In this document: positions 2,124 through 41,297 of the stretch, one piece after another
Layout: every line of letters begins with the position of its first letter
How positions within the stretch are numbered: the stretch's first letter is position 1
Sequence record: PQ471460.1
Length of the DNA stretch: 64,000 bases
Strand: one strand, 5' to 3'
DNA from: Escherichia phage vB_EcoM_JE01
Translations under genes and position numbers: made by a program
Notes under the pieces: model-generated
Databases searched by the model: none
What the model was told of the DNA's origin: nothing
The model's input: the letters and a program-made list of their open reading frames with translations, nothing else

Positions 2124-2864
2124 ATGATTAACGATTATATGACAGTTGAAGAAATCCGTCTTGATTTGGGTCTTGCATTAAAGGAAAAAGATTTCGTAAT
2201 TGATAAAACCGGTGTTAAAACTATTGAAATTATTGGTGCATCATTTGTAGCAGATGAACCTTTTATTTTTGGCGCTCTTAATGATGAATACATTCAGCGT
2301 GAACTTGAATGGTATAAGTCTCAAAGTTTGTTTGTTAAAGATATTCCAGGTGAAACACCAAAGATTTGGCAGCAGGTAGCATCTTCTAAAGGCGAAATTA
2401 ACTCGAATTATGGTTGGGCCATCTGGTCAGAAGATAACTATGCCCAGTATGATATGTGTTTAGCTGAACTTGGTCAAAATCCTGATTCTCGACGCGGTAT
2501 CATGATTTATACTCGTCCATCCATGCAGTTTGACTACAATAAAGATGGTATGTCAGATTTCATGTGTACGAATACAGTACAGTATCTGATTCGTGATAAG
2601 AAAGTCAATGCAGTAGTAAGCATGCGTTCAAATGACGTGGTCTTCGGATTCCGTAATGATTATGCATGGCAAAAATACGTACTAGATAAATTAGTATCTG
2701 ATTTGAATGCAGGTGATTCAACTCGTCAGTATAAAGCAGGTTCTATTATATGGAATGTCGGAAGTCTTCATGTGTATTCCCGTCATTTTTATTTGGTTGA
2801 CCATTGGTGGAAAACTGGCGAAACTCATATTGCGAAAAAAGATTATAACGGTGAGTGGAAATGA
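2124..2864 (+). CDS. 42: dCMP hydroxymethylase gp42 (246 aa)
   Basis: Thymidylate-synthase-like protein of exactly 246 aa between imm and uvsX. Confidence 0.9.
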   Translation: MINDYMTVEEIRLDLGLALKEKDFVIDKTGVKTIEIIGASFVADEPFIFGALNDEYIQRELEWYKSQSLFVKDIPGETPKIWQQVASSKGEINSNYGWAIWSEDNYAQYDMCLAELGQNPDSRRGIMIYTRPSMQFDYNKDGMSDFMCTNTVQYLIRDKKVNAVVSMRSNDVVFGFRNDYAWQKYVLDKLVSDLNAGDSTRQYKAGSIIWNVGSLHVYSRHFYLVDHWWKTGETHIAKKDYNGEWK

Positions 2865-3703: not shown

Positions 3704-3727
3704 TGCCTAAATTTATTGTGTTATAAT
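3704..3727 (+). promoter_or_regulatory. Middle-promoter-like element upstream of uvsX
   Basis: TGCCT (one mismatch to MotA box TGCTT) at 3704-3708, 13 nt gap, TATAAT 3722-3727. Confidence 0.3.
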
Positions 3728-3780
3728 TACCCTATCTTTAACCAGTGAGGAAAATATAATGATGCCTATGGAAAAAATGA

Positions 3781-6978: not shown

Positions 6979-7221
6979 ATGCATATCGTTTTATTTAAAC
7001 CTACTCCGTATAATGTCAGGAAAAATACTCAATTCAAGGCACTTATTGCGGATACGTGGGAATTGATGTTAGATATTCCAGCAGAAGAAAGTCCTCCATT
7101 TGGTCGAGTGGAATTTATTAAGTTTGCTGTGCGCCCTACGAAGCGACAGATTCGCCAATGCAAAAGATACTTTCGTAAAATCGTCAAGTTAGAGAAACAG
7201 TTATTGATGCTAGTAAAATAG
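6979..7221 (+). CDS. Hypothetical protein (80 aa; 61.4-position)
   Basis: ATG 6979 with GAGGG RBS; ORF-track frame 6937..7221. Confidence 0.4.
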   Translation: MHIVLFKPTPYNVRKNTQFKALIADTWELMLDIPAEESPPFGRVEFIKFAVRPTKRQIRQCKRYFRKIVKLEKQLLMLVK

Positions 7222-7223
7222 TA

Positions 7224-7253
7224 GTTTACAAGCTGATAGAGTTGTGTTATAGT
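7224..7253 (+). promoter_or_regulatory. T4-type early promoter (IR-flanked -10)
   Basis: GTTTAC 7224-7229, TATAGT 7248-7253; 10-bp inverted repeat AGCTGATAGA/TCTATCAGCT at 7231-7240 and 7257-7266. Confidence 0.6.
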
Positions 7254-7284
7254 AATTCTATCAGCTAATCGCGGAGAAAAGAAA

Positions 7285-7539
7285 ATGATGCTAGTTAATA
7301 GAGAATATCAGTTTAAATCAGAAGAAGATTTGGAAAAATTCGCAAGTGGTTGTGAACTGAATAGACGCACAGCTAAAGTCATAGGATTAAAACCCTTTAC
7401 AGTTCTAGATTGTGAAGTTTCTAAATTCCGCAGAGGGTGTTCTATTAGCGGTCATGCTCTGGTTGATGGAAACACATTTTTCTTTGTTTTTAGCGTCAGA
7501 GAACTTTTATTGATTAACGAACTTGAGGAAATAAAATAG
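7285..7539 (+). CDS. Hypothetical protein (84 aa)
   Basis: ORF downstream of early promoter. Confidence 0.4.
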   Translation: MMLVNREYQFKSEEDLEKFASGCELNRRTAKVIGLKPFTVLDCEVSKFRRGCSISGHALVDGNTFFFVFSVRELLLINELEEIK

Positions 7540-7596: not shown

Positions 7597-7890
7597 ATGA
7601 AAAAATTTGTTTTTGCTGCAATTTTTGCTTTAGCTTCTTGTGCTGCTCAGCCTGCTATGGCAGGTTATGATAAAGATTTGTGCGAATGGTCTATGACTGC
7701 AGATCAGACTGAGGTTGAAACTCAGATTGAAGCAGATATTATGAATATCGTTGAGCGTGATCGCCCTGAAATGAAAGCTGAAGTACAAAAACAGCTTAAA
7801 TCTGGTGGTGTAATGCAGTATAATTATGTTCTGTATTGCGATAAAAACTTCAATAATAAAAATATCATCGCTGAAGTGGTAGGTGAATAA
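7597..7890 (+). CDS. sp: Spackle (Sp) periplasmic protein, 97 aa
   Basis: 97 aa with cleavable signal peptide MKKFVFAAIFALASCAAQPAMA; position in the 61.x cluster as T4 sp. Confidence 0.7.
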   Translation: MKKFVFAAIFALASCAAQPAMAGYDKDLCEWSMTADQTEVETQIEADIMNIVERDRPEMKAEVQKQLKSGGVMQYNYVLYCDKNFNNKNIIAEVVGE

Positions 7891-8516
7891 TGCTTTATCA
7901 AATGCACAAGTGCAAAGACACGTACAAATATAAAGGTGCCCAGTGTTATATCATTAATCGTGAAAACGCAGGTCCAGGTCATTCGCATCAATCGCGGTTT
8001 GTATTCGTTAAAAACAACGAAATTATAGCAGTTGCTAATTACATGCTTGCGACTAGTGATGTTAATCCGGTGCCTTTCACATATTATAATCTAATGGACT
8101 TGGCGTACGATTATAATTGGTTTAATCATGATAATTTGGCTCATATTGAAGGCGTAGGATTTGACATCTCTTATTCTAGTTACTCGTTGTGTCCTATGAG
8201 CCGAGCTCATAAAGAGCCTGAATATTTTTCATTTCGTCGGCGTGTAGACTTTGAACGCAGCACAGAGTATATCGGTGGAATCTTTGTTAAAGATAATCGA
8301 ATTACTCGCATTATTTATCCTTTGGGCTGTGGTCAAAAAGATATTGATGTTGATTTAGACTTTACTGAAAACATCATTAATCATATTGCTTCTGTGTATT
8401 TTGATATTGATCATAAAATTGTAATATGTGGATATGAATTACCATCAGAAAAACAGTCTAAAGTGAATGTTTCTATTGATGACCAAATTTTTAATGCTTT
8501 TATGAATAGAGGTTAA
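7890..8516 (+). CDS. Hypothetical protein (208 aa; 61.2-position)
   Basis: ORF, ATGA-type coupling to sp. Confidence 0.5.
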   Translation: MLYQMHKCKDTYKYKGAQCYIINRENAGPGHSHQSRFVFVKNNEIIAVANYMLATSDVNPVPFTYYNLMDLAYDYNWFNHDNLAHIEGVGFDISYSSYSLCPMSRAHKEPEYFSFRRRVDFERSTEYIGGIFVKDNRITRIIYPLGCGQKDIDVDLDFTENIINHIASVYFDIDHKIVICGYELPSEKQSKVNVSIDDQIFNAFMNRG

Positions 8517-8684: not shown

Positions 8685-9713
8685 ATGTCATCAATACCTT
8701 GGATTGATAATGAGTTTGCATACCGTGCATTAGCTCATTTACCTAAATTCACACAAGTAAATAATAGTTCAACTTTTAAATTACGGTTTAGATGCCCTGT
8801 TTGTGGAGATTCAAAAACCGACCAAAATAAAGCCCGTGGATGGTATTATGGCGATAATAATGAAGGAAATATTCATTGTTATAACTGTAACTATCATGCA
8901 CCAATCGGAATATATTTAAAGGAGTTTGAACCTGATTTATATCGTGAGTATATCTTTGAAATAAGAAAAGAAAAAGGTAAAAGTCGTCCAGTAGAAAAAC
9001 CTAAAGAACTTCCTAAACAACCCGAGAAGAAAATAATTAAATCTCTTCCGTCATGCATTAGATTAGATAAACTGGCGGAAGACCATCCAATTATAAAATA
9101 CGTAAAAGCTCGTTGTATTCCAAAGGATAAATGGAAATATCTTTGGTTTACAACTGAATGGCCTAAATTAGTTAATAGTATAGCACCAGGAACATATAAA
9201 AAGGAAATACCTGAGCCTCGTCTTGTTATTCCAATTTATAATGCTAATGGAAAAGCTGAGTCTTTTCAAGGACGTGCATTAAAGAAAGATGCTCCCCAAA
9301 AATATATCACCATCAAAGCTTATCCTGAGGCAACAAAAATTTATGGTGTTGAACGAGTTAAAGATGGTGATGTATATGTTCTAGAAGGACCTATAGATTC
9401 ACTTTTTATTGAAAATGGTATAGCTATTACGGGTGGTCAATTAGACCTAGAAATTGTTCCATTTAAAGATAGACGTGTATGGGTTTTAGATAATGAACCT
9501 CGTCACCCTGACACTATTAAACGAATGACTAAATTAGTTGATGCAGGAGAAAGGGTTATGTTTTGGGATAAATCTCCCTGGAAATCAAAAGATGTCAATG
9601 ATATGATTAGAAAGGAAGGTGCAACCCCTGAACAAATTATGGAATATATGAAAAATAATATTGCCCAAGGGCTGATGGCTAAAATGCGGCTATCTAAATA
9701 TGCTAAGATTTAA
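8685..9713 (+). CDS. 61: DNA primase gp61, 342 aa
   Basis: 342 aa; zinc-ribbon CPVCGDS...CYNCN and TOPRIM-like core. Confidence 0.9.
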   Translation: MSSIPWIDNEFAYRALAHLPKFTQVNNSSTFKLRFRCPVCGDSKTDQNKARGWYYGDNNEGNIHCYNCNYHAPIGIYLKEFEPDLYREYIFEIRKEKGKSRPVEKPKELPKQPEKKIIKSLPSCIRLDKLAEDHPIIKYVKARCIPKDKWKYLWFTTEWPKLVNSIAPGTYKKEIPEPRLVIPIYNANGKAESFQGRALKKDAPQKYITIKAYPEATKIYGVERVKDGDVYVLEGPIDSLFIENGIAITGGQLDLEIVPFKDRRVWVLDNEPRHPDTIKRMTKLVDAGERVMFWDKSPWKSKDVNDMIRKEGATPEQIMEYMKNNIAQGLMAKMRLSKYAKI

Positions 9714-9910
9714 ATTAACCCAACCAAAGCAAATGCTAAATCTACGAATGTATCAAGAGTAATTACTGGAATACTAACGCCATGAGCAATAGCAACTGGC
9801 GATAAAACAAAATTCCAAAGTAAAATTCCTATCATAGCAGAAATAGTAAAAGCTATACGTTTTTTATTACCTTTGATGGCATTAACAAGTGCCATTAATT
9901 TTTGTACCAT
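9710..9910 (-). CDS. Hypothetical small membrane protein (66 aa), antisense to the early gene block
   Basis: Strong RBS AGGAGG 4 nt before ATG on minus strand; two hydrophobic segments. Confidence 0.45.
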   Translation of the reverse strand: MVQKLMALVNAIKGNKKRIAFTISAMIGILLWNFVLSPVAIAHGVSIPVITLDTFVDLAFALVGLI

Positions 9911-9980: not shown

Positions 9981-10631
9981 GTGAATTACCAAAAAATTTA
10001 CTCGGCTTTAATTACAAAAGCTAAATGCCGGCATCTTGGTGGATATAAAGAACGCCATCATATAATTCCTAGATGTATGGGAGGAGCAGATGACAAAAAC
10101 AATCTTGTTGAGTTAACTGCGCGTGAGCATTTTATAGCTCATAGATTATTAACCAAAATATATCCAGATGTGAGAGGATTGCATTATGCTGTAAATTTAA
10201 TGCGATATAATAAAGGTGTTAAATTAACAAGTAGATTAATAGAAACCCTTAAAATTCAAAACTCTGTTCTTTTCTCGGGTGAAAATAATCCTAGATATGG
10301 CAAGCCGTCATGGATTAAAGGCAAAAAGACCCCAGAAGAAACTAAAGCCAAAATGCGTCTAGCTCATAAAGGTAAAATTATATCCGATGAAGCCAAGGCT
10401 AATATGAGTAAAGCCCGAAAAGGAAGATTTAGCGGTAAAAATTCACCTCGATATTGTTTACCGAATCCAAGACGTGGTGAGATATGGAATTCGTATGATT
10501 CGCTTTACGAGTTGTGGGTTTATAATAATAGACCTAAGCGCACAAAATTTAATAAAATAGCTGTCAAGGCAGGTTATCCTAATATCTGCTATAGACATAT
10601 GATAGAAAACTTCATAAGAAAGGAAAAATAA
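9981..10631 (+). CDS. HNH homing endonuclease (216 aa, GTG start)
   Basis: HNH motif ERHHIIPRCMGGADDKNNLVELTAREHFIAH plus NUMOD-like repeats (ENNPRYGKP, KAKMRLAHKGK, KANMSKARKG). Confidence 0.7.
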   Translation: MNYQKIYSALITKAKCRHLGGYKERHHIIPRCMGGADDKNNLVELTAREHFIAHRLLTKIYPDVRGLHYAVNLMRYNKGVKLTSRLIETLKIQNSVLFSGENNPRYGKPSWIKGKKTPEETKAKMRLAHKGKIISDEAKANMSKARKGRFSGKNSPRYCLPNPRRGEIWNSYDSLYELWVYNNRPKRTKFNKIAVKAGYPNICYRHMIENFIRKEK

Positions 10632-10632
10632 C

Positions 10633-11151
10633 ATGCCACATTTCAACGAATGTAGTCATCTGATCGAAGGCGCTGATAAAGCTCAAAATGAATACTGGGA
10701 TATTCTCGGTGACGAAAAAGACCCGCTGCAAGTTATGCTTGATATGCAGAAATCTCTGCAAGTTCGTTTAGCTAAAGATAAACCTGAATATAATCGTCAT
10801 CCTGATGATTTGGCTACTGCTGGTGAAGTTGTTGATTGGCTGCGTAATCAGAAAGATTATATTGACGATGAATTCCGTGAACTTCTGACATCTCTTGGTG
10901 GTATGAGCAATGGCGAAAAAGATGCATCTGCTGTATGGAAGCCTTGGAAAGCTCAACATGGTGAACGCCGTGAAACTCTAATTACCGATTTGTCTCCGCA
11001 AGACCAGTTGGAAATTAAATTCGAAATGATTGATATTCTTCATTTCGTTCTGAACATGTTCCAAGGTCTTGGTCTTACAGCTGAAGAAATCTTTAAACTT
11101 TATTATCTGAAAAATGCTGAAAACTTCGCTCGTCAAGACCGAGGTTATTAA
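10633..11151 (+). CDS. 56: dCTPase / dCTP pyrophosphatase gp56 (172 aa)
   Basis: MazG-like protein of T4 gp56 length, upstream of soc. Confidence 0.85.
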   Translation: MPHFNECSHLIEGADKAQNEYWDILGDEKDPLQVMLDMQKSLQVRLAKDKPEYNRHPDDLATAGEVVDWLRNQKDYIDDEFRELLTSLGGMSNGEKDASAVWKPWKAQHGERRETLITDLSPQDQLEIKFEMIDILHFVLNMFQGLGLTAEEIFKLYYLKNAENFARQDRGY

Positions 11152-11184
11152 TATAAACGACAGCTTAAAAGCCGTGAGAATTAT

Positions 11185-11192
11185 TATAAATA
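11185..11192 (+). promoter_or_regulatory. Late promoter TATAAATA for soc
   Basis: Exact TATAAATA 31 nt upstream of soc ATG. Confidence 0.6.
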
Positions 11193-11222
11193 ATCATGTA
11201 ATTTAAATAAAAGGAGAATTAC

Positions 11223-21037: not shown

Positions 21038-21214
21038 ATGCCAATGTATGATTATAAATGCCAATCCGAAGATTGCGGGCATGAATATGAAAAAATTAAA
21101 AAGATTTCTGAACGAGAAAATGATGTTTGCCCTAAATGTCATCGTTTGTCTACTCGTCGGCCTTCTGCTCCTAAGCATGTGAATGGTGGATTTTACGACT
21201 TACTTAAAGGGTGA
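21038..21214 (+). CDS. Zinc-ribbon protein (58 aa), FmdB-like CxxxxC...CxxC
   Basis: MPMYDYKCQSEDCGHEYE...DVCPKCH; below ORF-track cutoff. Confidence 0.45.
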   Translation: MPMYDYKCQSEDCGHEYEKIKKISERENDVCPKCHRLSTRRPSAPKHVNGGFYDLLKG

Positions 21215-21216
21215 TT

Positions 21217-21588
21217 ATGTTTAAAATCGGTAAGAAATATCGTGTTCGCGAAGGTGAAGAAAAGAAATATCTACTTTCTTCTATTTATAGGAATGGTTCT
21301 ATTAATGCCGTAATATCTACAAGCGAATTTATCGTTGAAGATATGAAAGGCCATAATGTTACAATGATTAGTACAGCATCTGGAAATGATGGAAAAATTC
21401 TTCACAGTTTTCAGAGTAATGTTCTAATTTATGATGAAGAATTTGACTTCTTCGAAGAAGTTCCTGAAGATTTTGATTTTGAATGCACTATCACTATGAA
21501 ATCTGGCGACCCTCTTTCTTTTACAGTTAAAGATGAAAGAAGTCGCTTGAGAATTATTAGTCTCCTTCAAGCCATTAAATTTGAGTGA
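21217..21588 (+). CDS. Hypothetical protein (123 aa)
   Basis: ATG 21217; ORF-track frame 21211..21588. Confidence 0.4.
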   Translation: MFKIGKKYRVREGEEKKYLLSSIYRNGSINAVISTSEFIVEDMKGHNVTMISTASGNDGKILHSFQSNVLIYDEEFDFFEEVPEDFDFECTITMKSGDPLSFTVKDERSRLRIISLLQAIKFE

Positions 21589-21592
21589 AATT

Positions 21593-21853
21593 ATGAAATA
21601 TGTTAATCGTTCTATCGCGGCATTAGTATTAGCAGTATCTTTAGTAGGATGTACTGATGCTGATAATGCAACCAAAGTTTTGTCTTCAAGTGGTTTTACT
21701 AATATTGAAATCACTGGATATAATTGGTTCGGTTGCTCTGAAAATGATTTCCAACACACTGGATTTCGTGCTATTGGACCTACCGGGCAGAAAGTAGAAG
21801 GAACAGTATGTTCTGGTCTATTCTTCAAGGATTCGACTATCCGTTTTAAATAA
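21593..21853 (+). CDS. Hypothetical lipoprotein (86 aa)
   Basis: Signal peptide with lipobox LVGC; ATG 21593. Confidence 0.4.
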   Translation: MKYVNRSIAALVLAVSLVGCTDADNATKVLSSSGFTNIEITGYNWFGCSENDFQHTGFRAIGPTGQKVEGTVCSGLFFKDSTIRFK

Positions 21854-21854
21854 A

Positions 21855-21870
21855 AGGCCTTCGGGCCTTT
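21855..21870 (+). terminator. Terminator-like hairpin
   Basis: AGGCC-TTCG-GGCCT stem-loop; weak U-tract. Confidence 0.35.
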
Positions 21871-21919
21871 AGCTTTATGATTACCGGAGTATAATATTCC
21901 CGAAACCAAACGAGGATAA

Positions 21920-23740
21920 GTGATGATTAAGAATGAAATTAAAATTCTGAGCGATATTGAACATATCAAAAAGCGTAGCGGCATGTATATTGGCTCTTCT
22001 GCTAATGAAATGCATGAGCGCTTTCTGTTTGGTAAATGGGAAAGTGTTCAGTATGTACCTGGTCTTGTTAAGCTTATTGATGAAATTATTGATAACTCAG
22101 TAGATGAAGGTATTCGTACTAAGTTTAAATTCGCAAATAAAATTAATGTTACTATCAAAAACAATCAAGTAACAGTTGAAGATAACGGTCGTGGTATTCC
22201 ACAGGCGATGGTTAAAACACCTACCGGTGAAGAAATTCCTGGTCCTGTTGCTGCATGGACTATTCCAAAAGCAGGTGGTAACTTTGGTGATGATAAAGAA
22301 CGCGTCACTGGCGGTATGAACGGTGTTGGTTCTAGTTTAACTAACATTTTTTCTGTGATGTTTGTCGGTGAAACTGGCGACGGTCAAAATAATATTGTAG
22401 TTCGCTGCTCGAATGGCATGGAAAATAAATCGTGGGAAGATATTCCTGGAAAATGGAAAGGAACACGTGTTACTTTCATACCTGATTTTATGTCATTTGA
22501 AACTAATGAGCTATCTCAAGTTTATCTTGACATTACACTAGATCGTCTCCAGACACTTGCAGTAGTTTATCCTGATATTCAATTTACCTTTAATGGTAAA
22601 AAGGTTCAGGGTAATTTTAAGAAATATGCACGCCAATATGATGAACATGCTATCGTTCAAGAACAAGAAAATTGTTCTATTGCGGTTGGTCGTTCACCGG
22701 ATGGTTTTCGTCAATTAACATACGTCAATAACATTCATACTAAGAATGGTGGCCATCACATTGACTGCGTTATGGATGATATTTGTGAAGACCTTATTCC
22801 ACAAATCAAACGTAAGTTCAAAATTGATGTAACTAAAGCACGTGTTAAAGAATGTTTGACTATCGTTATGTTTGTTCGTGATATGAAAAACATGCGATTT
22901 GATTCTCAAACTAAAGAGCGTTTGACTTCTCCATTTGGTGAAATTCGTAGTCATATTCAGCTTGATGCTAAAAAGATTTCACGTGCTATTTTAAATAATG
23001 AAGCAATTTTAATGCCAATCATTGAAGCTGCCTTGGCTCGTAAATTGGCGGCAGAAAAAGCAGCAGAAACTAAAGCAGCTAAAAAGGCTTCTAAAGCTAA
23101 GGTTCATAAACATATTAAAGCGAATCTTTGTGGTAAAGATGCTGATACTACTCTTTTCTTGACTGAGGGTGATTCTGCTATTGGATATCTTATTGATGTT
23201 CGTGATAAAGAACTTCATGGTGGTTATCCATTGCGTGGTAAAGTTCTTAACAGTTGGGGCATGTCATATGCTGATATGCTTAAAAACAAAGAACTATTTG
23301 ATATTTGCGCAATCACTAGATTAGTTCTTGGTGAAAAAGCCGAAAACTTGAATTATCATAATATTGCAATTATGACCGATGCTGACCATGATGGTCTAGG
23401 AAGCATTTATCCTTCTCTGCTCGGATTTTTTAGTAATTGGCCAGAATTGTTTGAACAAGGAAGAATTCGCTTTGTCAAAACTCCTGTAATCATCGCTCAG
23501 GTCGGCAAAAAACAAGAATGGTTTTATACAGTCGCTGAATATGAGAGTGCCAAAGATGCTCTACCTAAACATAGCATCCGTTATATTAAAGGACTTGGCT
23601 CTTTGGAAAAATCTGAATATCGTGAGATGATTCAAAATCCAGTATATGATGTTGTTAAACTTCCTGAGAATTGGAAAGAGCTTTTTGAAATGCTCATGGG
23701 AGATAATGCTGACCTTCGTAAAGAATGGATGAGCCAGTAG
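21920..23740 (+). CDS. 39: Topoisomerase II large (GyrB-like) subunit gp39, single uninterrupted 606-aa gene
   Basis: GHKL ATPase N-terminus, TOPRIM motifs EGDSA and MTDADHDG in one continuous ORF; no separate gene 60 between it and rIIA. Confidence 0.85.
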   Translation: MMIKNEIKILSDIEHIKKRSGMYIGSSANEMHERFLFGKWESVQYVPGLVKLIDEIIDNSVDEGIRTKFKFANKINVTIKNNQVTVEDNGRGIPQAMVKTPTGEEIPGPVAAWTIPKAGGNFGDDKERVTGGMNGVGSSLTNIFSVMFVGETGDGQNNIVVRCSNGMENKSWEDIPGKWKGTRVTFIPDFMSFETNELSQVYLDITLDRLQTLAVVYPDIQFTFNGKKVQGNFKKYARQYDEHAIVQEQENCSIAVGRSPDGFRQLTYVNNIHTKNGGHHIDCVMDDICEDLIPQIKRKFKIDVTKARVKECLTIVMFVRDMKNMRFDSQTKERLTSPFGEIRSHIQLDAKKISRAILNNEAILMPIIEAALARKLAAEKAAETKAAKKASKAKVHKHIKANLCGKDADTTLFLTEGDSAIGYLIDVRDKELHGGYPLRGKVLNSWGMSYADMLKNKELFDICAITRLVLGEKAENLNYHNIAIMTDADHDGLGSIYPSLLGFFSNWPELFEQGRIRFVKTPVIIAQVGKKQEWFYTVAEYESAKDALPKHSIRYIKGLGSLEKSEYREMIQNPVYDVVKLPENWKELFEMLMGDNADLRKEWMSQ

Positions 23741-23769
23741 TTTACTTTACCACAAGGATGTGGTATAAT
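23739..23769 (+). promoter_or_regulatory. T4-type early promoter
   Basis: GTTTAC 23739-23744, 19-bp spacer, TGTGGTATAAT (TATAAT 23764-23769). Confidence 0.6.
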
Positions 23770-23794
23770 TAATTGGGCAAATGAGGATATTGAA

Positions 23795-23998
23795 ATGAAA
23801 TCATATAGAGTAAATTTAGAACTTTTTGATAAAGCAGTTCATCGAGAATATAGAATCATTCAACGCTTTTTCGATATGGGAGAAGCCGAAGAGTTTAAAA
23901 ACCGCTTTAAGGATATTAGAGATAAAATTCAATCTGACACCGCAACTAAAGATGAACTACTAGAAGTTGCTGAAGTTATTAAACGCAATATGAATTAA
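23795..23998 (+). CDS. Hypothetical protein (67 aa)
   Basis: ORF between 39 and rIIA. Confidence 0.4.
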
Positions 23999-24008
23999 TG
24001 AGGAAATT

Positions 24009-26186
24009 ATGATTATCACCACTGAAAAAGAAACAATTCTTGGTAATGGTTCTAAATCAAAAGCATTTAGCATCACAGCATCTCCTAAAGTATTTAAAAT
24101 TCTATCATCTGATTTGTACACAAACAAGATTCGCGCAGTAGTCCGTGAATTGATTACCAACATGATTGATGCCCATGCTCTTAATGGAAATCCTGAAAAA
24201 TTTATCATACAAGTTCCAGGACGATTAGATCCGCGATTTGTTTGTCGAGATTTTGGTCCGGGTATGAGCGATTTTGATATTCAGGGTGATGATAATTCTC
24301 CTGGGTTGTATAATTCATACTTCAGTTCATCTAAGGCTGAATCCAACGATTTCATTGGCGGATTTGGTTTAGGTTCTAAATCTCCGTTTAGTTATACTGA
24401 TACATTTAGTATTACTTCGTACCATAAAGGTGAAATTCGCGGTTATGTAGCTTACATGGATGGTGACGGTCCGCAAATTAAACCTACATTCGTAAAAGAA
24501 ATGGGTCCAAATGATAAAACTGGTATTGAAATCGTAGTTCCAGTTGAAGAAAAAGATTTTAGAAACTTTGCTTATGAAGTTTCTTATATCATGCGACCAT
24601 TCAAAGATTTAGCTATCATTAACGGTCTTGACCGCGAAATTGATTATTTTCCGGATTTTGATGACTATTACGGTGTAAATCCAGAAAGATACTGGCCAGA
24701 TCGTGGTGGATTGTATGCTATCTATGGCGGCATTGTTTATCCTATCGAAGGTGTTATTAGAGATCGTAACTGGTTAAGCATCCGCAATGAAGTGAATTAT
24801 ATTAAGTTTCCAATGGGTTCACTTGATATTGCTCCATCGCGTGAGGCTCTTTCACTAGATGATCGTACTCGTAAAAATATTATTGAGCGTGTTAAAGAGC
24901 TCAGTGAGAAGGCATTTAATGAAGATGTAAAACGATTTAAAGAATCTACATCTCCTCGTCATACATACCGTGAATTGATGAAGATGGGATATTCTGCTCG
25001 AGATTATATGATTAGCAATTCGGTCAAATTCACGACTAAAAATCTGTCATATAAAAAGATGCAAAGCATGTTTGAACCTGACAGTAAGTTATGTAATGCA
25101 GGAGTTGTGTATGAAGTAAATCTTGACCCTCGACTGAAACGCATTAAGCAAAGCCATGAAACTTCAGCCGTTGCATCAAGTTATCGTCTGTTTGGTATTA
25201 ACACAACAAAAATTAATATCGTTATTGATAATATTAAAAACCGCGTTAATATTGTCCGTGGATTAGCACGTGCATTAGATGATAGCGAATTTAATAACAC
25301 CTTAAATATTCATCACAATGAGCGTCTTCTGTTTATTAATCCGGAAGTAGAATCACAGATTGATTTACTCCCTGATATTATGGCAATGTTTGAAAGTGAT
25401 GAAGTTAACATTCATTATTTGTCAGAAATTGAAGCTTTAGTTAAAAGTTATATTCCAAAGGCAGTAAAAAGTACAGCTCCTCGTCCTAAAACTGCCACTG
25501 CATTTAAGTTTGAAATTAAAGACGGGCGTTGGGAAAAAGAGGAATTGTTTACGCTCACATCAGAAGCAGATGAAATTACTGGTTATGTAGCATACATGCA
25601 TCGTTCTGATATTTTCTCTATGGATGGTACTACATCGCTTTGTCATCCATCTACGAATATTTTGATTCGTATGGCTAATCTTATTGGCATTAATGAATTT
25701 TATGTTATTCGTCCGCTTTTGCAGAAAAAGGTAAAAGAACTTGGTCAGTGCCAATGTATTTTTGAAACTTTGCGTGATTTATATGTAGATGCTTTTGATG
25801 ATGTAGATTATGATAAGTATGTAGGTTATTCAAGTTCAGCTAAACGATATATTGATAAAATTATCAAGTATCCTGAGTTAGATTTTATGATGAAGTACTT
25901 CAGTGTAGATGAAGTTTCTGAAGAATATACACGACTCGCTAATATGGTTAGTTCATTACAGGGTGTATATTTCAACGGTGGAAAAGATACCATCGGTCAT
26001 GACATCTGGACAGTAACTAATCTTTTTGATGTATTATCAAATAATGCTTCAAAAAACAGTGATAAAATGGTTGCTGAGTTTACCAAGAAATTCCGTATTG
26101 TTTCCGACTTCATCGGTTATCGCAATTCTTTAAGTGATGATGAAGTTTCCCAAATCGCTAAAACTATGAAGGCCCTTGCGGCCTAA
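24009..26186 (+). CDS. rIIA: RIIA protein (725 aa)
   Basis: 725 aa with N-terminal GHKL-type ATPase fold ([12 protein letters not shown]); followed by rIIB. Confidence 0.85.
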
Positions 26187-30344: not shown

Positions 30345-31673
30345 ATGCAACTGAATAATCGCGATTTAAAAAGTATCATTGATAATGAAGCATTGGCTTA
30401 TGCTATGTACACGGTTGAAAATCGTGCTATTCCAAATATGATTGATGGATTTAAGCCAGTCCAACGATTTGTTATCGCTCGAGCTCTTGATTTGGCACGA
30501 GGAAATAAAGATAAGTTTCACAAACTTGCTTCTATTGCAGGTGGTGTAGCTGACCTTGGATATCATCATGGCGAAAACTCTGCACAAGATGCGGGGGCTT
30601 TGATGGCTAACACTTGGAATAATAACTTTCCTTTGTTAGACGGTCAAGGAAACTTTGGTTCTCGTACTGTTCAAAAAGCAGCGGCAAGTCGTTATATTTT
30701 TGCTCGTGTAAGTAAAAATTTCTATAACGTATATAAAGATACTGAATATGCTCCGGTACATCAAGATAAAGAACACATTCCGCCTGCTTTCTATTTGCCT
30801 ATTATTCCTACTGTTCTTCTTAATGGTGTTTCCGGTATTGCAACTGGTTATGCAACTTACATTCTTCCTCATAGTGTTTCTTCTGTTAAGAAAGCTGTAT
30901 TACAAGCTCTTCAAGGAAAGAAAGTAACTAAACCGAAGGTAGAATTCCCAGAATTTCGCGGTGAAGTCGTTGAGATTGACGGGCAATATGAAATTCGTGG
31001 AACATATAAGTTTACTTCACGAACTCAAATGAATATCACTGAGATTCCGTATAAGTATGATCGTGAAACTTATGTGAGTAAAATCTTAGACCCGCTTGAA
31101 GATAAGGGCTTCATTACATGGGATGATGCTTGCGGTGAGCATGGTTTTGGCTTTAAAGTTAAATTCCGCAAAGAATATTCTTTGAGCGATAACGAAGAAG
31201 AACGCCATGCAAAAATCATGAAAGACTTCGGGTTGATTGAGCGTCGTTCCCAGAATATTACAGTCATTAATGAGAAAGGAAAGCTGCAAGTTTACGATAA
31301 CGTAGTTGATTTAATCAAAGACTTCGTTGAAGTTCGTAAAACTTATGTCCAAAAACGAATTGATAACAAAATTAAAGAAACTGAATCAGCATTTCGTTTA
31401 GCCTTTGCCAAGGCACATTTCATTAAGAAAGTAATTTCAGGTGAAATCGTTGTACAGGGTAAAACTCGCAAAGAACTGACCGAAGAACTTTCTAAAATTG
31501 ATATGTATTCTTCTTATGTCGATAAACTAGTCGGAATGAATATTTTTCATATGACTTCTGACGAAGCAAAGAAACTTGCTGAAGAAGCTAAAGCTAAGAA
31601 AGAAGAAAACGAATATTGGAAAACTACTGATGTAGTTACAGAATACACCAAAGATTTAGAGGAAATCAAATGA
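30345..31673 (+). CDS. 52: Topoisomerase II medium (GyrA-like) subunit gp52, 442 aa
   Basis: GyrA-like N-terminal domain with active-site region AASRYIFAR; 442 aa. Confidence 0.9.
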   Translation: MQLNNRDLKSIIDNEALAYAMYTVENRAIPNMIDGFKPVQRFVIARALDLARGNKDKFHKLASIAGGVADLGYHHGENSAQDAGALMANTWNNNFPLLDGQGNFGSRTVQKAAASRYIFARVSKNFYNVYKDTEYAPVHQDKEHIPPAFYLPIIPTVLLNGVSGIATGYATYILPHSVSSVKKAVLQALQGKKVTKPKVEFPEFRGEVVEIDGQYEIRGTYKFTSRTQMNITEIPYKYDRETYVSKILDPLEDKGFITWDDACGEHGFGFKVKFRKEYSLSDNEEERHAKIMKDFGLIERRSQNITVINEKGKLQVYDNVVDLIKDFVEVRKTYVQKRIDNKIKETESAFRLAFAKAHFIKKVISGEIVVQGKTRKELTEELSKIDMYSSYVDKLVGMNIFHMTSDEAKKLAEEAKAKKEENEYWKTTDVVTEYTKDLEEIK

Positions 31674-33963: not shown

Positions 33964-34242
33964 ATGATTATTGATTCTCAATCTGTGGTTCAATATACAA
34001 TCAAAATTGATATTCTAGAAAAGCTATATAAGTTTCTACCAAATTTATACCACTCAATTGTTAATGAATTAGTTGAAGAACTACATCTTGAGAATAATGA
34101 TTTCTTGGTTGGAACTTATAAAGACCTCTCAAAAGCAGGATATTTTTACGTAATTCCAGCTCCAGGAAAAAGTATTGATGATGTATTAAAAACTATAATG
34201 ATTTACGTCCATGATTACGAAATTGAAGATTATTTCGAATGA
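33964..34242 (+). CDS. arn: Arn anti-restriction protein candidate (92 aa, acidic)
   Basis: 92-aa acidic ORF adjacent to asiA, as T4 arn. Confidence 0.5.
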   Translation: MIIDSQSVVQYTIKIDILEKLYKFLPNLYHSIVNELVEELHLENNDFLVGTYKDLSKAGYFYVIPAPGKSIDDVLKTIMIYVHDYEIEDYFE

Positions 34243-34391
34243 GTCATAATCTTGAAAAGGTAATCGAGCATAATGTAGCTCAGGAACGTGAGTCGTTCAA
34301 GGAATTCGTAGAAAAAATTTTTGAAGAAAATAACACAGACCAGTTTACAAATCAAACGTCTGATGATATTATAATAAAGTCAACTAATTGA
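34239..34391 (+). CDS. Hypothetical protein (50 aa)
   Basis: ATGA overlap with arn stop; below ORF-track cutoff. Confidence 0.3.
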   Translation: MSHNLEKVIEHNVAQERESFKEFVEKIFEENNTDQFTNQTSDDIIIKSTN

Positions 34392-34403
34392 GTGGTATAG
34401 TTA

Positions 34404-34676
34404 ATGAATAAAAACATTGATACAGTTCGTGAAATTATTACTGTTGCGTCTATTTTGATTAAATTTTCCAGAGAAGATATTGTTGAGAATCGTGCTAATT
34501 TTATCGCATTTCTGAATGAGATTGGAGTAACGCATGAAGGTAGAAAGTTAAATCAGAATTCATTCCGTAAAATTGTTTCTGAATTAACCCAAGAAGATAA
34601 GAAAACCCTCATCGACGAATTCAACGAGGGTTTTGAGGGTGTATATCGATATCTAGAGATGTATACAAACAAATAA
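34404..34676 (+). CDS. asiA: AsiA anti-sigma70 factor (90 aa)
   Basis: 90 aa; matches T4 AsiA as I recall it (MNKNIDTVREIITVASILIKFSREDIVENRANFIAFLNEIG...). Confidence 0.85.
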   Translation: MNKNIDTVREIITVASILIKFSREDIVENRANFIAFLNEIGVTHEGRKLNQNSFRKIVSELTQEDKKTLIDEFNEGFEGVYRYLEMYTNK

Positions 34677-35333
34677 TTATTTAGCCCTTCCTAATATTCT
34701 GGCCGCCTGAGAACATATTGATTCAAGGCGGTCATTACTTATATGATCATTTCTATACCAGTACATGGTTATCGTTCCAGCATAGATATTATCCAAATTA
34801 AAATATGGACAACTGTACATGTAGTTTATTTCGGGAGTAGGCTTTTTAGTTGGTAAAAAAGCAAATTTTGAGTTGGAATAATAATGACGTCCATTTAAAT
34901 GAACTGTATATTCATCCATAGTTTTATCAACAGGATATCCTCCAAGTGATTTTTCGCTTATTGTTGAAGGTAATTTTCCTTCATATGCTATAATATCAAC
35001 AAAATAGTTTAAGTTTTTAGGGCGGAAAGAATACACCGCACTAAAGTCTGCCTCAGATGATATATGAACTATCTGGAGTTGTTCCAGGGCGACAGATTCA
35101 AAGCGTGCATTTCTTTCCTTTTCAATAATTTCACTGTATGTTTCATACTTTGATTGCTTATAGTACTCAAAGAAACTATCTCCCCTATACCAAACAATCG
35201 CCATTATAAACAAAAGAATTACGACAGCTACTCGGGAAGCAAGAACCTTCCCGGTAGCGTTATCTTTGAACAAGCGATCTAGAACACCCAACAGAATATC
35301 AGAGGGCGAAAATGATATTCTAGGTGCTGCCAT
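34677..35333 (-). CDS. t: Holin T (218 aa)
   Basis: 218 aa, single N-terminal TM then large periplasmic domain; convergent with asiA, downstream of gene 38. Confidence 0.85.
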   Translation of the reverse strand: MAAPRISFSPSDILLGVLDRLFKDNATGKVLASRVAVVILLFIMAIVWYRGDSFFEYYKQSKYETYSEIIEKERNARFESVALEQLQIVHISSEADFSAVYSFRPKNLNYFVDIIAYEGKLPSTISEKSLGGYPVDKTMDEYTVHLNGRHYYSNSKFAFLPTKKPTPEINYMYSCPYFNLDNIYAGTITMYWYRNDHISNDRLESICSQAARILGRAK

Positions 35334-35363
35334 AGACCCTCCTTTTAAGGATATTTATTCAAA

Positions 35364-36143
35364 TTATACTCTTGGACCATATATTGCTCCAACGTTTTGC
35401 CATGTCGGTGTAGACCCTATGACGGCATAACCAGCAGCACCACCGTTATATTCTGTACCGTTCCCATGAATATTACATCTACCTCCTGCTGAGCCAACTT
35501 CACCGCCATTCCCGCCTGTATATACCCAAAGAGACCCCTCACCGACAGATCCTGCACCCGGAGCGGAAATGGTGCCAGCGGTTGCACCAGCACCCATATG
35601 AGAGGAAGACCCGCCAGCACCGAATGGGCGACCACCACCACCACCAAATGATAGTCTACCGTAGTTACCGCCGCCGCCACCGCCACCGCCGCCTGCAATA
35701 GCTCCACCATTATTAATTCTTAGTCTCCCACCAATATCGTTTTGAATACAATGACCTCCAGCTGAGCCAGGACTATTGCTACCGCCATTACCGCCACGTC
35801 CATACATCGTTACGCCGTGTATATTCAACTGAACATATTCATTCGGTGTATCTCCGTACATGAAGAATAAAGGAACATCTTTAGAATATGATACTAAATC
35901 TCCAGTGATATTAAACACTATAGGTGTACTACCTGCCTCAAAACATCTATCTCGGAACCATTGACCATTGAAGTTATGGTCTGCTCCAAGCGTGTGAATA
36001 ATTTCTCTTGAGCGACCTGCAAATTGACTCATCCAGCAAGGAACACCCAATCTTAATTGACCAGCTGCTTGACTCATCCAGCGCTGACCCGTTTCATTTA
36101 CGGCTGAACTTCCAATCCAGCCAGGAACTCCAACTACTGCCAT
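35364..36143 (-). CDS. 38: gp38 tail-fibre adhesin, T2 type (259 aa) with glycine-rich motifs
   Basis: Poly-Gly tracts ([29 protein letters not shown]) characteristic of T2-like gp38 adhesins rather than the shorter T4 gp38 chaperone. Confidence 0.8.
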
Positions 36144-36158
36144 AATTTATACTCCAAA

Positions 36159-36173
36159 GGGGGCATTTCCCCC
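36159..36173 (-). other. GC hairpin between gene 37 stop and gene 38 start
   Basis: GGGGG-AAATG-CCCCC on the minus-strand transcript, immediately upstream of gene 38 RBS. Confidence 0.5.
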
Positions 36174-36179
36174 TTGTTG

Positions 36180-39100
36180 TTAGAATTTAAAATATTTACT
36201 AATTTTGCGAGCAATTTTAGTAAAGAGAGGCGTTTTCAATTCTTTAATTTCTTCACTCATTTCCTGAATAGCCTTAATTAAAAGCGCGTTCACAGCAGAG
36301 TTAGAAATTGTTAAAATTTCTTCCGGGTTATCCTGAGATCCGACACTAGAAGTGCTAACAGCTTCCGGTAATACTTCTTGCAAATCCTGTGCGATAATAC
36401 CAATCTCATGGCCGATAACTTCGCGGTCAGAAAGAGATTTAACTTTATCATAGGTTTTAACTTTGAGTTTATTTACCTTATCCACCGCATTTTCTTCGTA
36501 ATCTTCAACATTAATTTTCAGACGACGATCGGAACGAATATAAACATCGTTAAAGTTTCCGTTACCAGTGGCATGAAATTCTCCACTTGCATGGAATTGA
36601 TAATCAGCACCCTGAACATGAAGAACCGCTGCCGCAGTATTATTACTATCACCGGGACAATGAACGTCCATAGCAGCGATGTAGTTACGCCCCCAATCAA
36701 CCGCTTTCCAAATAGCATGAGCACTATCAACGCTTTGTTGACAGTCAACCAACAAACCAGCAGGTCGGTCTCTCCATGCAACATATGCACCACCAGAAAC
36801 CTCACCACGGATAAGTCCTTGATCTGCGGCATAAGGAACACGCCCTTCCAGTTGAATCATTGCGCCCTTAAAGTGATGACTAAATGGTCCACCGTGGTTA
36901 TTGCGAATATGTAAAATACCCTCATCTGTAGCCCAGATAACAGCCTTTTCTGCCTCGCTATCATCTCTAAACCAGACGCGGCGAGCACCAGCAGAGTTTT
37001 TGATAGTAATCCCGGAAGGTCCATGCACAGTAAAAGCGCCAGCAACATCAAACATCAAACTGTTATCTGTCCTACGTTCAGTATAGAAGTGATAACCTTT
37101 GGAATCACCGACTTCCATCACTGCCGAGCGACCAACTTCTGAATTTCCCCAATTATTGATATGGAATTGTTCAGAGCTATTATTCATCTGATTTAGGTAT
37201 AATGCACCATCAGTAAATGTTTCGCCAAAGAAACGAGTTTTAATTGCACCTGTCGCTAAAGTACGTTCAGTGGAAAAATGAGCGCCTTGACTATCTTCTA
37301 ACTGGATGATGTTATCACGAGCATTATTACTATCACCCCAATGGTTAAATTTAAAATAATCTCGTGATCCTAAACGTCCGGCGTCAAAAGTCATCACGCC
37401 TTTCATGTTAATATCACCGTCGACCAGAACATTATCCGGGAAGTTAACAGTACCGTCTTGATTAAAACGAGACGTATGGCCTTGTGAACCATCTTCTTTC
37501 AGATGATGAATAACGAATGTACCTGAACTAATCTCAGTACCTAAAGACCAAACGGCTTTACCATTTAAAAACTTCTGTTTAACAATAGGATAATATTTGC
37601 TTATAGCATCATCATCAATTTCCTGGAAAATAGGAGCCGCTTGAGCATATTGAATGTCATAACCACCAGCGCCTGCGCCATGACCAGTAAATTTAATATA
37701 GCCGTTTGCTGCGAACGTATTGTAACTTGATTGTAAATCTGGAATAGTAACTTTACCGGTATCTAAAGCCATACTAAACGGGCGAAGTGGACCGATATCG
37801 CCATGTTTACCTTCACCATAAGCAGTTGGAATAATATGAAGACTTCCTTCTGAACGTCTAAAAATGGCTCCATAATCTGCGTTCCAAATACGAAGAGCAT
37901 TCACTGCTCCAGATGAAATTTCACCTGTTGTGTGAACTCCTCTATCTCCAGCAGTAACACCAGATGATTCAAATGAACCATTAACGTTCATTTCTACTTC
38001 GCCAGTAGTAAGTCTTTGAATATAGCTCATCCAGCTAGTTGCATCAGAAATTTCCATAATGTTTTTACGGATACCTCCGCTTGGATCAACAAACGTATTA
38101 CCCCAAACTTTAATATCCATATTATCAACCGAGCTGTATCCTGTTGTGTTACCTCTAAACATCAGCGTAGAAGAATTATTACGACCATCAATATTAACAG
38201 AACCACCAATAACGTCAATATTACCAGGAGTGACTAACAAACCGCCGTGAGTATTAATGTTTGTAGTACCTTTACCACGGAAATAGTGATGATAATTACC
38301 GCCTTGGTAATATCCTAAAAGAGTTTGACCATCTCCAAACGCGTTATTATCGTGATATGTCACGACAGTAGCAAGAGCATAGTTTTCAGTTGGAGGAGTC
38401 GTTAAATCGGTTCCGTTAGTAGAATATCCAGCTACAAATTTTCTTAGGCTAGTTGTTTCACTAGGACTAAATAAAAATGTTTTCGTTCCATTATTGACGC
38501 TGAAATAATATCCATCCTGATGCCATTTAAATCCAGTATCATTATCTCCAAGAGAAATTGAAGCAGTCCCTAATTCAGAATATCCTTTAGAGCCACCTGG
38601 AAGACCTATAGAAACAGAATGGCCTGCTTTCAATCCACCAGACCAGGTAAACGACCAAAGATAGGCATCTAACCCGTCACCAGCGTACCAGGTTATCCCG
38701 TCGTTATCTTTAACTTCATGGAATATACCAGATCCTACGGCATTTCGCATAACACGGAGGTGGTTAATAGCCGTTTCGCTTTCTGCCAATGGAGTGTTAT
38801 TTGCTAATGAATAGATATCATAATCGCCTGTCTTCTTCCCATTTGTAATAACTTTATCGGTCAGAATTTGTGGAGACGAAATAGATTTCCATGCTGATAC
38901 TTCAGGTGAAGTAAATAGGCCACTACCTGAAAATGCATAGGTGCTTTCACTTCCTGCAGCATAATCTTGAACCCTGATATTAAGTACTTGTGTAGTTAAT
39001 CCATCATTAGCCGGGGCATAAATGATTCCGCGTTCGCGGTTATTGCCATCGAAAAAACGAACATGTGATGTACCTGAACTTTTTGTAATAAGTTCTCCAC

Positions 39101-39422
39101 CCTCAGTCATAATCTGCCCGGCAGCAATAATATCGCGAGTTACTCGAGCAATACCAGTTAAATTAAAATTACCTGTCTGAGTGAAAGTGCCATTTAAAGT
39201 ATAATCACCAGTTTGATTATAGTTTCCTATATGAATAACATTCCCGTCAATGCTACCACCTTTAGCAAAACCAAGATCAATGATATTTCCTTGGTCGTCT
39301 TTAGTAAAAAGTACGCGGTCTTTTAAGTTTATAGCCAATTCACCTTCGGCTAATACTGAAGCGGCAGGACGTGCTCCTGCAGTTTTGCTTCTTTTAAATT
39401 GTATTTGTTTTAAAGTAGCCAT
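36180..39422 (-). CDS. 37: Long tail fibre distal subunit gp37 (1080 aa)
   Basis: 1080-aa Gly/Ser/Thr-rich fibre protein downstream of 36 and upstream of 38. Confidence 0.85.
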   Translation of the reverse strand: MATLKQIQFKRSKTAGARPAASVLAEGELAINLKDRVLFTKDDQGNIIDLGFAKGGSIDGNVIHIGNYNQTGDYTLNGTFTQTGNFNLTGIARVTRDIIAAGQIMTEGGELITKSSGTSHVRFFDGNNRERGIIYAPANDGLTTQVLNIRVQDYAAGSESTYAFSGSGLFTSPEVSAWKSISSPQILTDKVITNGKKTGDYDIYSLANNTPLAESETAINHLRVMRNAVGSGIFHEVKDNDGITWYAGDGLDAYLWSFTWSGGLKAGHSVSIGLPGGSKGYSELGTASISLGDNDTGFKWHQDGYYFSVNNGTKTFLFSPSETTSLRKFVAGYSTNGTDLTTPPTENYALATVVTYHDNNAFGDGQTLLGYYQGGNYHHYFRGKGTTNINTHGGLLVTPGNIDVIGGSVNIDGRNNSSTLMFRGNTTGYSSVDNMDIKVWGNTFVDPSGGIRKNIMEISDATSWMSYIQRLTTGEVEMNVNGSFESSGVTAGDRGVHTTGEISSGAVNALRIWNADYGAIFRRSEGSLHIIPTAYGEGKHGDIGPLRPFSMALDTGKVTIPDLQSSYNTFAANGYIKFTGHGAGAGGYDIQYAQAAPIFQEIDDDAISKYYPIVKQKFLNGKAVWSLGTEISSGTFVIHHLKEDGSQGHTSRFNQDGTVNFPDNVLVDGDINMKGVMTFDAGRLGSRDYFKFNHWGDSNNARDNIIQLEDSQGAHFSTERTLATGAIKTRFFGETFTDGALYLNQMNNSSEQFHINNWGNSEVGRSAVMEVGDSKGYHFYTERRTDNSLMFDVAGAFTVHGPSGITIKNSAGARRVWFRDDSEAEKAVIWATDEGILHIRNNHGGPFSHHFKGAMIQLEGRVPYAADQGLIRGEVSGGAYVAWRDRPAGLLVDCQQSVDSAHAIWKAVDWGRNYIAAMDVHCPGDSNNTAAAVLHVQGADYQFHASGEFHATGNGNFNDVYIRSDRRLKINVEDYEENAVDKVNKLKVKTYDKVKSLSDREVIGHEIGIIAQDLQEVLPEAVSTSSVGSQDNPEEILTISNSAVNALLIKAIQEMSEEIKELKTPLFTKIARKISKYFKF

Positions 39423-39430
39423 AAGTCCTC

Positions 39431-40108
39431 TTAATAATAGCCGAAATCTTGAACAGAATCCTTAATAACAATTTGATCAAATCGTGGAACATGTGAGGGT
39501 TGAGATGCAGGATTCTGTGAAAAAAGGTTTGGCGCAGTTAAATTTCCTGTCATAGTATCTCCAGAGCGTAATACCCTAGAGTTTGCGTTTACTGTAACAA
39601 TATTTATTGCTCCATCAACATAATCTTTACGAGTAAGATCGTTAACCGCAACAGGTGCAGCCATGTCTGAACGAACTTGTCCAGAGGCGTAAACACCGCC
39701 TTTAGTATTAATTGTGCCTGTACGAGTATTAATGGATATCGTATATCCTGAATTACCTAATGAAGATTTAAATCCAACACCATACCAAGAAACGATATCT
39801 AGGTTGTTTGCTGTAAAATCGGCCCCATCATCAACTCCAGGAAAAATACCATTAATGTTCCCTGTTTGAATTACGCCGTCTTTAGAAAACGGGATTTGTA
39901 CACCTGCATTAAATGATACTTTGTTTAAATATGTGCCACCTGATGCTTTAGAAACGAAATCGTTATCAGCAGCTTGTGGTTTATTGTATTCTGAATATAT
40001 TTTAAATGATTTATAGAGTACATCGTCACCGGCTGGATTCAATGGAAAATTTCCTTGATGCCAAATGACAGAGCCTCCTGTTGTTGAACCTACTTTTAAA
40101 TCAGCCAT
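39431..40108 (-). CDS. 36: Long tail fibre hinge protein gp36 (225 aa)
   Basis: Size and position between 35 and 37. Confidence 0.8.
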   Translation of the reverse strand: MADLKVGSTTGGSVIWHQGNFPLNPAGDDVLYKSFKIYSEYNKPQAADNDFVSKASGGTYLNKVSFNAGVQIPFSKDGVIQTGNINGIFPGVDDGADFTANNLDIVSWYGVGFKSSLGNSGYTISINTRTGTINTKGGVYASGQVRSDMAAPVAVNDLTRKDYVDGAINIVTVNANSRVLRSGDTMTGNLTAPNLFSQNPASQPSHVPRFDQIVIKDSVQDFGYY

Positions 40109-40131
40109 TGTATGCCCCTTTATTTTAATAG

Positions 40132-40139
40132 TATTTATA
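40132..40139 (-). promoter_or_regulatory. Late promoter TATAAATA upstream of gene 36
   Basis: Exact TATAAATA on minus strand 24 nt upstream of gene 36 ATG. Confidence 0.6.
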
Positions 40140-40140
40140 A

Positions 40141-40165
40141 AGAAAAAGGGAACCCGAAGGCTCCC
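40141..40165 (-). terminator. Intrinsic terminator after gene 35 (minus strand)
   Basis: Minus-strand GGGAGCC-TTCG-GGTTCCC hairpin followed by TTTTTCT. Confidence 0.6.
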
Positions 40166-40170
40166 TCAAT

Positions 40171-41289: not shown

Positions 41290-41297
41290 AATACCTC

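Follow-up and report, generated by a model that had tools for sequence, protein, structure and literature searches.

An uninterrupted gene 39 for the topoisomerase II large subunit in the T4-like Escherichia phage vB_EcoM_JE01

Gene 39 of Escherichia phage vB_EcoM_JE01 (sequence record PQ471460.1) is one uninterrupted gene encoding the GyrB-like large subunit of the T-even topoisomerase II. It occupies positions 21923..23740 (+ strand) of the 64,000-nucleotide stretch that was analysed, hereafter the window, and the assignment of its 605-amino-acid product is supported by the ORF, by Pfam domains and by matches to phages T4, T2 and T6. This Tequatrovirus (T4-like) gene is very probably the parental, never-split allele of the large subunit, conventionally translated and contributing to a two-subunit enzyme together with gp52. 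Uninterrupted gene 39 has been described since the comparisons of T2 and T4 in the late 1980s, and the finding is correct, already known and ordinary.

Results

The reading frame (21920..23740, + strand) is open from an in-frame GTG at 21920, one codon 5' of the ATG at 21923, to a stop codon at 23738-23740, and the C-terminal end of its product reads ...DNADLRKEWMSQ. Given the base composition of the window a stop is expected about every 13 codons, and the probability of 605 open codons by chance is P ~4e-21. A Shine-Dalgarno-like GAGGA, read from the sequence at 21912..21916 (+ strand) and presumably the ribosome-binding site of gene 39, is placed 6 nt from the ATG and 3 nt from the GTG. The annotated homologues, gp39 of T4, T2 and T6 included, all begin with MIKNEIK. 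The ATG at 21923 is the most likely start because of this spacing and these homologues, which also speak against the GTG. An earlier note on this DNA, made without database searches, had given the gene 606 amino acids and a span reaching to 23998. The former is the length counted from the GTG, and the protein is likely to be one residue shorter; as for the latter, gene 39 ends at 23740 and position 23998 is where the following ORF, rIIA.1, stops.

Three Pfam domains were found in the gene 39 ORF, all above the gathering score: HATPase_c (PF02518, the GHKL ATPase) at residues 47-149 with an E-value of 2e-9, DNA_gyraseB (PF00204, the transducer) at residues 250-384 with an E-value of 1.4e-13, and TOPRIM_C (PF16898) at residues 519-604. 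The GHKL motifs DNGRGI and GGMNG are both present. The TOPRIM is complete in one polypeptide, with the glutamate motif EGDSA at residue 415, the DxDxD motif as DADHDG at residue 486, and the C-terminal associated domain. The claim that ATPase, transducer and TOPRIM regions share a single ORF is borne out by these domains and motifs.

In T4 (NC_000866) the C-terminal part of the subunit is a separate gene 60 with a 50-nt bypass, as the earlier note states. According to that record gp39 has 516 amino acids and gp60 has 160, which settles the lengths about which the note was unsure; gene 60 is joined across an annotated bypass at 2803..2852, and 60.1 and the mobA pseudogene sit between genes 39 and 60. 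Alignment with both T4 proteins had been proposed, and in BLASTP both were covered without gaps: residues 1-473 of the window protein correspond to gp39 1-473 with 98.3% identity and residues 472-605 to gp60 27-160 with 95.5% identity, so the ORF spans both T4 proteins. By BLASTP the ORF lacks an equivalent only for gp39 474-516 and gp60 1-26. The alternative in which the ORF is equivalent to T4 gp39 alone, with the gp60 equivalent missing or elsewhere, can be discarded, since it conflicts with the alignment of residues 472-605 to gp60 and with the position of TOPRIM_C in the same ORF.

BLASTN comparison with T4 showed collinearity at 96% identity on both sides of a sole break, located at 23340|23405 in the window and 3911|2793 in T4. 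At this break 64 nt in the window (23341..23404, + strand) stand against 1117 nt in T4 (NC_000866 2794-3910), which comprise the C-terminal extension (CTE) of gp39, the mobA pseudogene/60.1, the N-terminal extension (NTE) of gp60, the 50-nt gap and 9 nt. The BLASTN breakpoints and the junction alignment identify these 64 nt as the native segment that is replaced by the MobA element in T4-type phages. The segment corresponds to codons ~473-494 (...ENLNYHNIAIMTDADHDGLGS) and encodes the TOPRIM DxDxD metal-binding motif. At the left junction the window and T4 alike read GGTGAAAAAGC(C/G), followed in T4 by TTTGAAGAAAAAGAAGAT..., where the element-encoded CTE begins, and in the window by GAAAACTTGAATTATCAT....

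At the position of the bypass T4 reads GAU GGA UAG CCUUCGGGCUAUC...UUAUU GGA UUA GGU UCU, and the window reads GAT GGT CTA GGA AGC, unbroken and with neither stop nor gap. The codon table and the comparison with T4 place the counterpart of the take-off codon of T4 gene 60 (codon 46, GGA) at the GGT of Gly491 (23393..23395, + strand). Gene 39 contains eight in-frame GGA codons, none of them adjacent to a stop; because the ORF is open throughout, no in-frame GGA can precede a stop. Over the 60 nt that lead up to the bypass position, the window and homR, the element-borne copy in T4, agree at 39 of 60 positions, and despite this nucleotide divergence the encoded peptide is nearly the same (KSSSMNYANVAIMTDADHDG in T4, KAENLNYHNIAIMTDADHDG in the window). 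Just past the landing codon, 5 of 9 nt are likewise different from T4, and identity resumes beyond them. The 64 nt of the window differ from those of T2 at three bases, all synonymous, and from those of T6 likewise by synonymous differences only. The bypass-equivalent segment of the window folds no better as RNA than its shuffles (z = -0.25), whereas the T4 segment folds into the known take-off hairpin.

Parts of the MobA element were searched for in the whole 64-kb window by tblastn, with intact MobA (272 aa), CTE and NTE from phage HY01 as queries. Intact MobA had no match at gene 39, and its sole match in the window was to a paralogue at 9981..10256. Searches with CTE and NTE across the window rendered nothing significant (E >= 0.24, in unrelated places). 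The take-off motif GGATAG and the core of the bypass hairpin (GATGGATAG, TAGCCTTCGGGCTA) were absent from both strands of the window in a regular-expression search, in line with the earlier inspection by eye for GGA-UAG take-off and landing motifs. Short-word blastn with element DNA over the whole window gave chance matches of 13-17 nt only, and no Rfam family reached its gathering threshold anywhere in the window. The statement that gene 60 and a bypass cassette are lacking holds for the gene 39 locus, where none of the GGA-stop take-off, bypass hairpin, MobA, CTE and NTE was found and the native 64 nt are in place.

The MobA paralogue is a 216-amino-acid HNH + NUMOD3 protein encoded at 9981..10631, and it is 50% identical to the first 91 amino acids of MobA. 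Its presence means that the description un-invaded applies to the gene 39 locus and not to the genome. The paralogue gene is flanked by genes 61 and 56 and occupies the place that dam has in T4, and the same arrangement is seen at this locus in phage ECO07P1. No Dam or SegF homologue was found in the 64-kb window. Gene 56, which adjoins the endonuclease gene, has 76% DNA identity to T4 compared with 95-96% in the flanks.

Upstream of gene 39, the stop codon of 39.1 is overlapped by a GGCC-UUCG-GGCC hairpin, after which comes AGCTTTA-N12-TATAAT (21852..21895, + strand, from the sequence). The latter we take to be a possible MotA-box middle promoter, judged by the T4 middle-promoter consensus. 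In phage G28 the counterpart of the hairpin between 39.1 and 39 is listed as a putative terminator. Downstream, rIIA.1 and an early-promoter-like site are all that separate gene 39 from rIIA, just as the earlier note had it. The product of rIIA.1 (23795..23998, + strand; 67 aa) matches PF24210 (T4_RIIA1) with an E-value of 2.2e-33, and the gene has the same place in T4, T2 and T6. The ORF of rIIA (24009..26186, + strand; 725 aa) has 96% nucleotide identity to T4 positions 1-2793 and is annotated as rIIA in homologues. The promoter-like site, GTTTAC-N17-TGgTATAAT (23740..23769, + strand), abuts the stop of gene 39, has an extended -10 and agrees at 10 of 12 positions in a consensus scan. It may serve as an early promoter; promoter-like sites in the region are no more numerous than expected from shuffled sequence, and this one is a consensus match only.

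The partner of gp39, the GyrA-like medium subunit of topoisomerase II, is encoded by gene 52 (30345..31673, + strand; 442 aa), identified from its ORF and PDB matches. Residues 1-442 of gp52 aligned to PDB 8yo3_A (985.9 bits) and to 8ylu_A, both at ~986 bits.

One substitution in the window protein, G466R, is private to it. Codon 466 (23318..23320, + strand) is AGA for arginine through a G to A change at 23318, according to the sequence comparison, and the residue is glycine (GGA or GGT) in T4, T2, T6, EcNP1, G28 and SsoM113. Megablast of 40 nt centred on 23318, in which every 28-nt seed spans this base, gave no match among 50,697 phage records; base 23318 is the sole difference between EcNP1 and the window across these 40 nt. 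Residue 466 belongs to the TOPRIM domain, and its codon precedes the MobA insertion point by 7 codons. The substitution may alter the activity of this gp39 copy or be a sequencing error. It is very unlikely to be a functional variant as opposed to a neutral change or a sequencing error, whether one selected for its effect on the topoisomerase (drug sensitivity, conditional activity) or one that alters, through the DNA near the MobA target, how susceptible the gene is to homing.

Megablast of 21500..24300 matched 573 phage records, and in 493 of the 573 no less than 80% of the region lies in a single collinear stretch. A 151-nt probe spanning the junction was covered by 449 records. The T4 cassette (T4 2780..3920) was found in 43 records, among them T4 isolates, RB55, RB59, HY01, HY03 and vB_EcoM_112. 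By these counts, 493 and 449 uninterrupted records against 43 with the cassette, the uninterrupted form of gene 39 prevails among T4-like phages by about ten to one. The closest record at the gene 39 locus in megablast of phage records is EcNP1, with 98.6% identity, and the best 24-kb matches to the window are 94-96% identical.

Discussion

GHKL ATPase, transducer and complete TOPRIM are all carried by one 605-residue polypeptide, and its translation would be conventional, with no ribosomal bypass. With gp52 it would assemble, like its T2 and T6 counterparts, into a (gp39)2(gp52)2 type IIA topoisomerase. The enzyme of T6 has been purified, relaxes DNA and has been solved by cryo-EM as a gp39/gp52 heterotetramer (PDB 8YLU/8YO1/8YO5; Nat Commun 2024, PMC11461880). 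Based on this structural and biochemical work and on 99.5% identity, ATP-dependent relaxation by a (gp39)2(gp52)2 tetramer is also to be expected for the enzyme encoded in the window.

In T4 and ~40 sequenced relatives, a MobA element of ~1.1 kb has replaced the 64 nt inside the TOPRIM DxDxD motif. This element splits the gene into 39 and 60 and brings in the 50-nt bypass gap. The review by Uzan and Miller states that the other T4-related phages sequenced at the time have gene 39 as a single ORF, without the mobA-60.1 insertion and the gap nucleotides (PMC3014915). A preprint analyses the uninterrupted form as "parental Topo2L" and describes the element as 1097-1106 nt long, deleting ~64 nt of the parental gene and bringing its own diverged copy, homR; in clade 1 the element reaches 9 nt past the bypass, and its 3' boundary directly follows G491 (bioRxiv 10.1101/2022.08.31.505936). 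The anatomy of the junction between the window and T4 is exactly that of this element, and the 9-nt divergence fits clade 1. The allele is regarded as parental because its 64 nt match T2 and T6 but match the element-borne copy of T4 poorly (39/60). The earlier suggestion that this genome represents the arrangement before MobA insertion is thus upheld at this locus by the T2/T6-type segment and the exact junctions relative to T4.

An uninterrupted gene could also have been acquired secondarily. The locus might once have been invaded and then have recovered the parental allele, through homologous recombination, from an uninvaded phage infecting the same cell. T-even genomes are mosaic, progressive loss of MobA elements is reported in the preprint (bioRxiv 10.1101/2022.08.31.505936), and identity varies along gene 39, being 100% to EcNP1 over nt 1-500 and 95-99% thereafter. 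However, the locus has no scar: the 64 nt, like the 9 nt that follow Gly491, have the parental T2/T6 form and not that of homR, and both CTE and NTE are absent. Such a cured locus is considered unlikely. Cured and never-invaded alleles look the same in sequence, and the choice between them changes the history of the gene but not its identity.

Another route would be the re-fusion of a split 39/60 pair after deletion of the endonuclease and the bypass. Such fusions exist, since the 'clade 8' phages of the preprint have a re-fused gene 39/60 with the CTE and NTE tails kept (bioRxiv 10.1101/2022.08.31.505936). This origin is almost certainly wrong for the window gene and was ruled out because re-fused genes retain these tails and tblastn found neither. 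The length of exactly 605 amino acids as in T2 and T6, the gap-free alignment and the parental-type junction are likewise at odds with it. The never-split parental allele remains the preferred reading.

MobA nicks gene 39 of T2 in the region of the native segment, and the bypass insert protects the allele that bears the element, according to Bonocora et al. 2011 as cited in the preprint (bioRxiv 10.1101/2022.08.31.505936). By homology to T2, and as far as that citation goes, 23341..23404 should contain the MobA nick and recognition region. The allele is predicted to be MobA-sensitive, and with that a homing target, by analogy with the published T2 experiments, because the target segment differs from that of T2 by three synonymous bases only.

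The result has little weight in itself. It is mainly a clean negative, in that the recoding signal and the mobile element are both absent at the gene 39 locus. It offers a further parental reference allele with which the boundaries of MobA elements can be mapped, and in MobA homing crosses the phage might serve as a predicted recipient.

The closest known systems are the large subunits of T2, T6, RB32 and RB14, which share with the window the length of 605 amino acids, the gene order 39.1-39-rIIA.1-rIIA and, at the MobA target, the native segment of 64 nt. Aligned without gaps, the window protein is identical at 603 of 605 residues to gp39 of T2 and at 602 of 605 to gp39 of T6, both 605 amino acids long. 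Its residues 1-605 align to the His-tagged T6 gp39 in PDB 8ylu_C with 1381.8 bits. EcNP1 and G28 have RB32-type proteins identical at 604 of 605 residues, and the G28 record annotates its gp39 as identical to that of RB32. The window differs from the T2, T6, RB32 and RB14 genes by the private G466R and by scattered synonymous changes (96% nucleotide identity).

T4 has both the enzyme and its flanking genes in common with the window, with 98% and 96% identity across the shared parts of the proteins. It differs in having a 43-amino-acid C-terminal extension of gp39, an N-terminal extension of gp60 composed of ~30 unique amino acids and the 16-amino-acid homR copy, the mobA pseudogene/60.1, the GGA-UAG take-off hairpin, the 50-nt gap and the landing GGA, none of which is present in the window. 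The enzyme of T4 has three subunit types, whereas that of the window should have two.

Beyond the phages, the same architecture of GHKL ATPase, transducer and TOPRIM is found in GyrB, in ParE and in the N-terminal half of eukaryotic Topo II, and PDB matches to human TOP2A/B, yeast Top2, ParE and GyrB have E-values from 1e-58 to 1e-35. DNA relaxation is the published activity of the T-even enzymes. Compared with the cellular type IIA B subunits, gp39 of the window is much shorter and phage-specific, and by sequence it is nearer to eukaryotic Topo II than to gyrase.

Homing endonuclease gene in the 61-56 region

A Mob-type homing endonuclease of 216 amino acids is encoded on the plus strand at 9981..10631, between gene 61 (8685..9713) and gene 56 (10633..11151, plus strand). 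It matches the NUMOD3 (E 1.5e-6) and HNH (E 0.0024, under the Pfam cut-off) domains and is similar to MobA, the HNH homing endonuclease of the T4-type cassette that splits genes 39 and 60, of which residues 1-91 align with 50% identity (E 2e-20). In T4, the exact position of this gene is occupied by dam, and no Dam homologue was found in the whole 64-kb window. Copies at least 90% identical to the endonuclease are present in about 55 phage records. Among the relatives, phage ECO07P1 has an identical gene arrangement around the gene and a protein with 99.1% amino acid identity.

The DNA of the adjacent gene 56 (dCTPase; 10618..11151, plus strand) is just 75.9% identical to T4, compared with 95-96% in the flanking regions. 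T4 also carries segF between 56 and soc; the window has no segF, and the two genes are separated by only about 70 nt (11152..11222). The sharp divergence of gene 56 beside sites of endonuclease insertion may reflect divergence of a homing endonuclease target.

Differences from T4 are also found upstream, where about 330 nt (7203..7531) gave no BLASTN match to T4; the T4 counterpart, between 61.4 and sp, is only about 26 nt long (T4 20119-20146). Along its entire length, the homologue of T4 61.2 (7890..8516, plus strand) matches the Pfam family of anti-DarT factor A, AdfA (E 9.5e-135). Immediately downstream of gene 61, a hydrophobic 66-aa ORF without a match in Pfam lies on the opposite strand (9710..9910, minus). 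The ECO07P1 annotation lists it as a hypothetical protein, and its DNA is kept in T4 (about 96%) without annotation.

Composition of the window

Negative GC skew coincides with a raised GC content (0.37-0.41) at about 34000..44000, which together indicate a block of minus-strand genes. Megablast matches in this interval name long tail fibre genes. Neither Rfam families nor tRNAs were found across the entire window.

Gene 39 and its upstream region

Codon 466 of gp39, the topoisomerase II large subunit, is AGA (Arg; 23318..23320, plus strand) and encodes Gly in T4, T2, T6, EcNP1, G28 and SsoM113. The base change does not occur among 50,697 phage records. Arg466 could be genuine and private to this copy, but it could also have arisen by mutation in the laboratory or be an error of sequencing.

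Upstream of gene 39, the sequence contains a GGCC-UUCG-GGCC hairpin overlapping the stop codon of 39.1, followed by AGCTTTA-N12-TATAAT (together 21852..21895, plus strand). The counterpart of the hairpin in phage G28 is annotated as a putative terminator, and the element after it resembles a middle promoter of the MotA-dependent type, which might serve gene 39.

Between 39.2 and 39.1, a 125-aa ORF (21211..21588, plus strand) without a match in Pfam is annotated in relatives as RB32ORF005c. The ORF is absent from T4, and collinearity of the window with T4 skips from 21219 to 21591. At the same position T6 has a CDS of 372 nt and T2 a different one of 318 nt.
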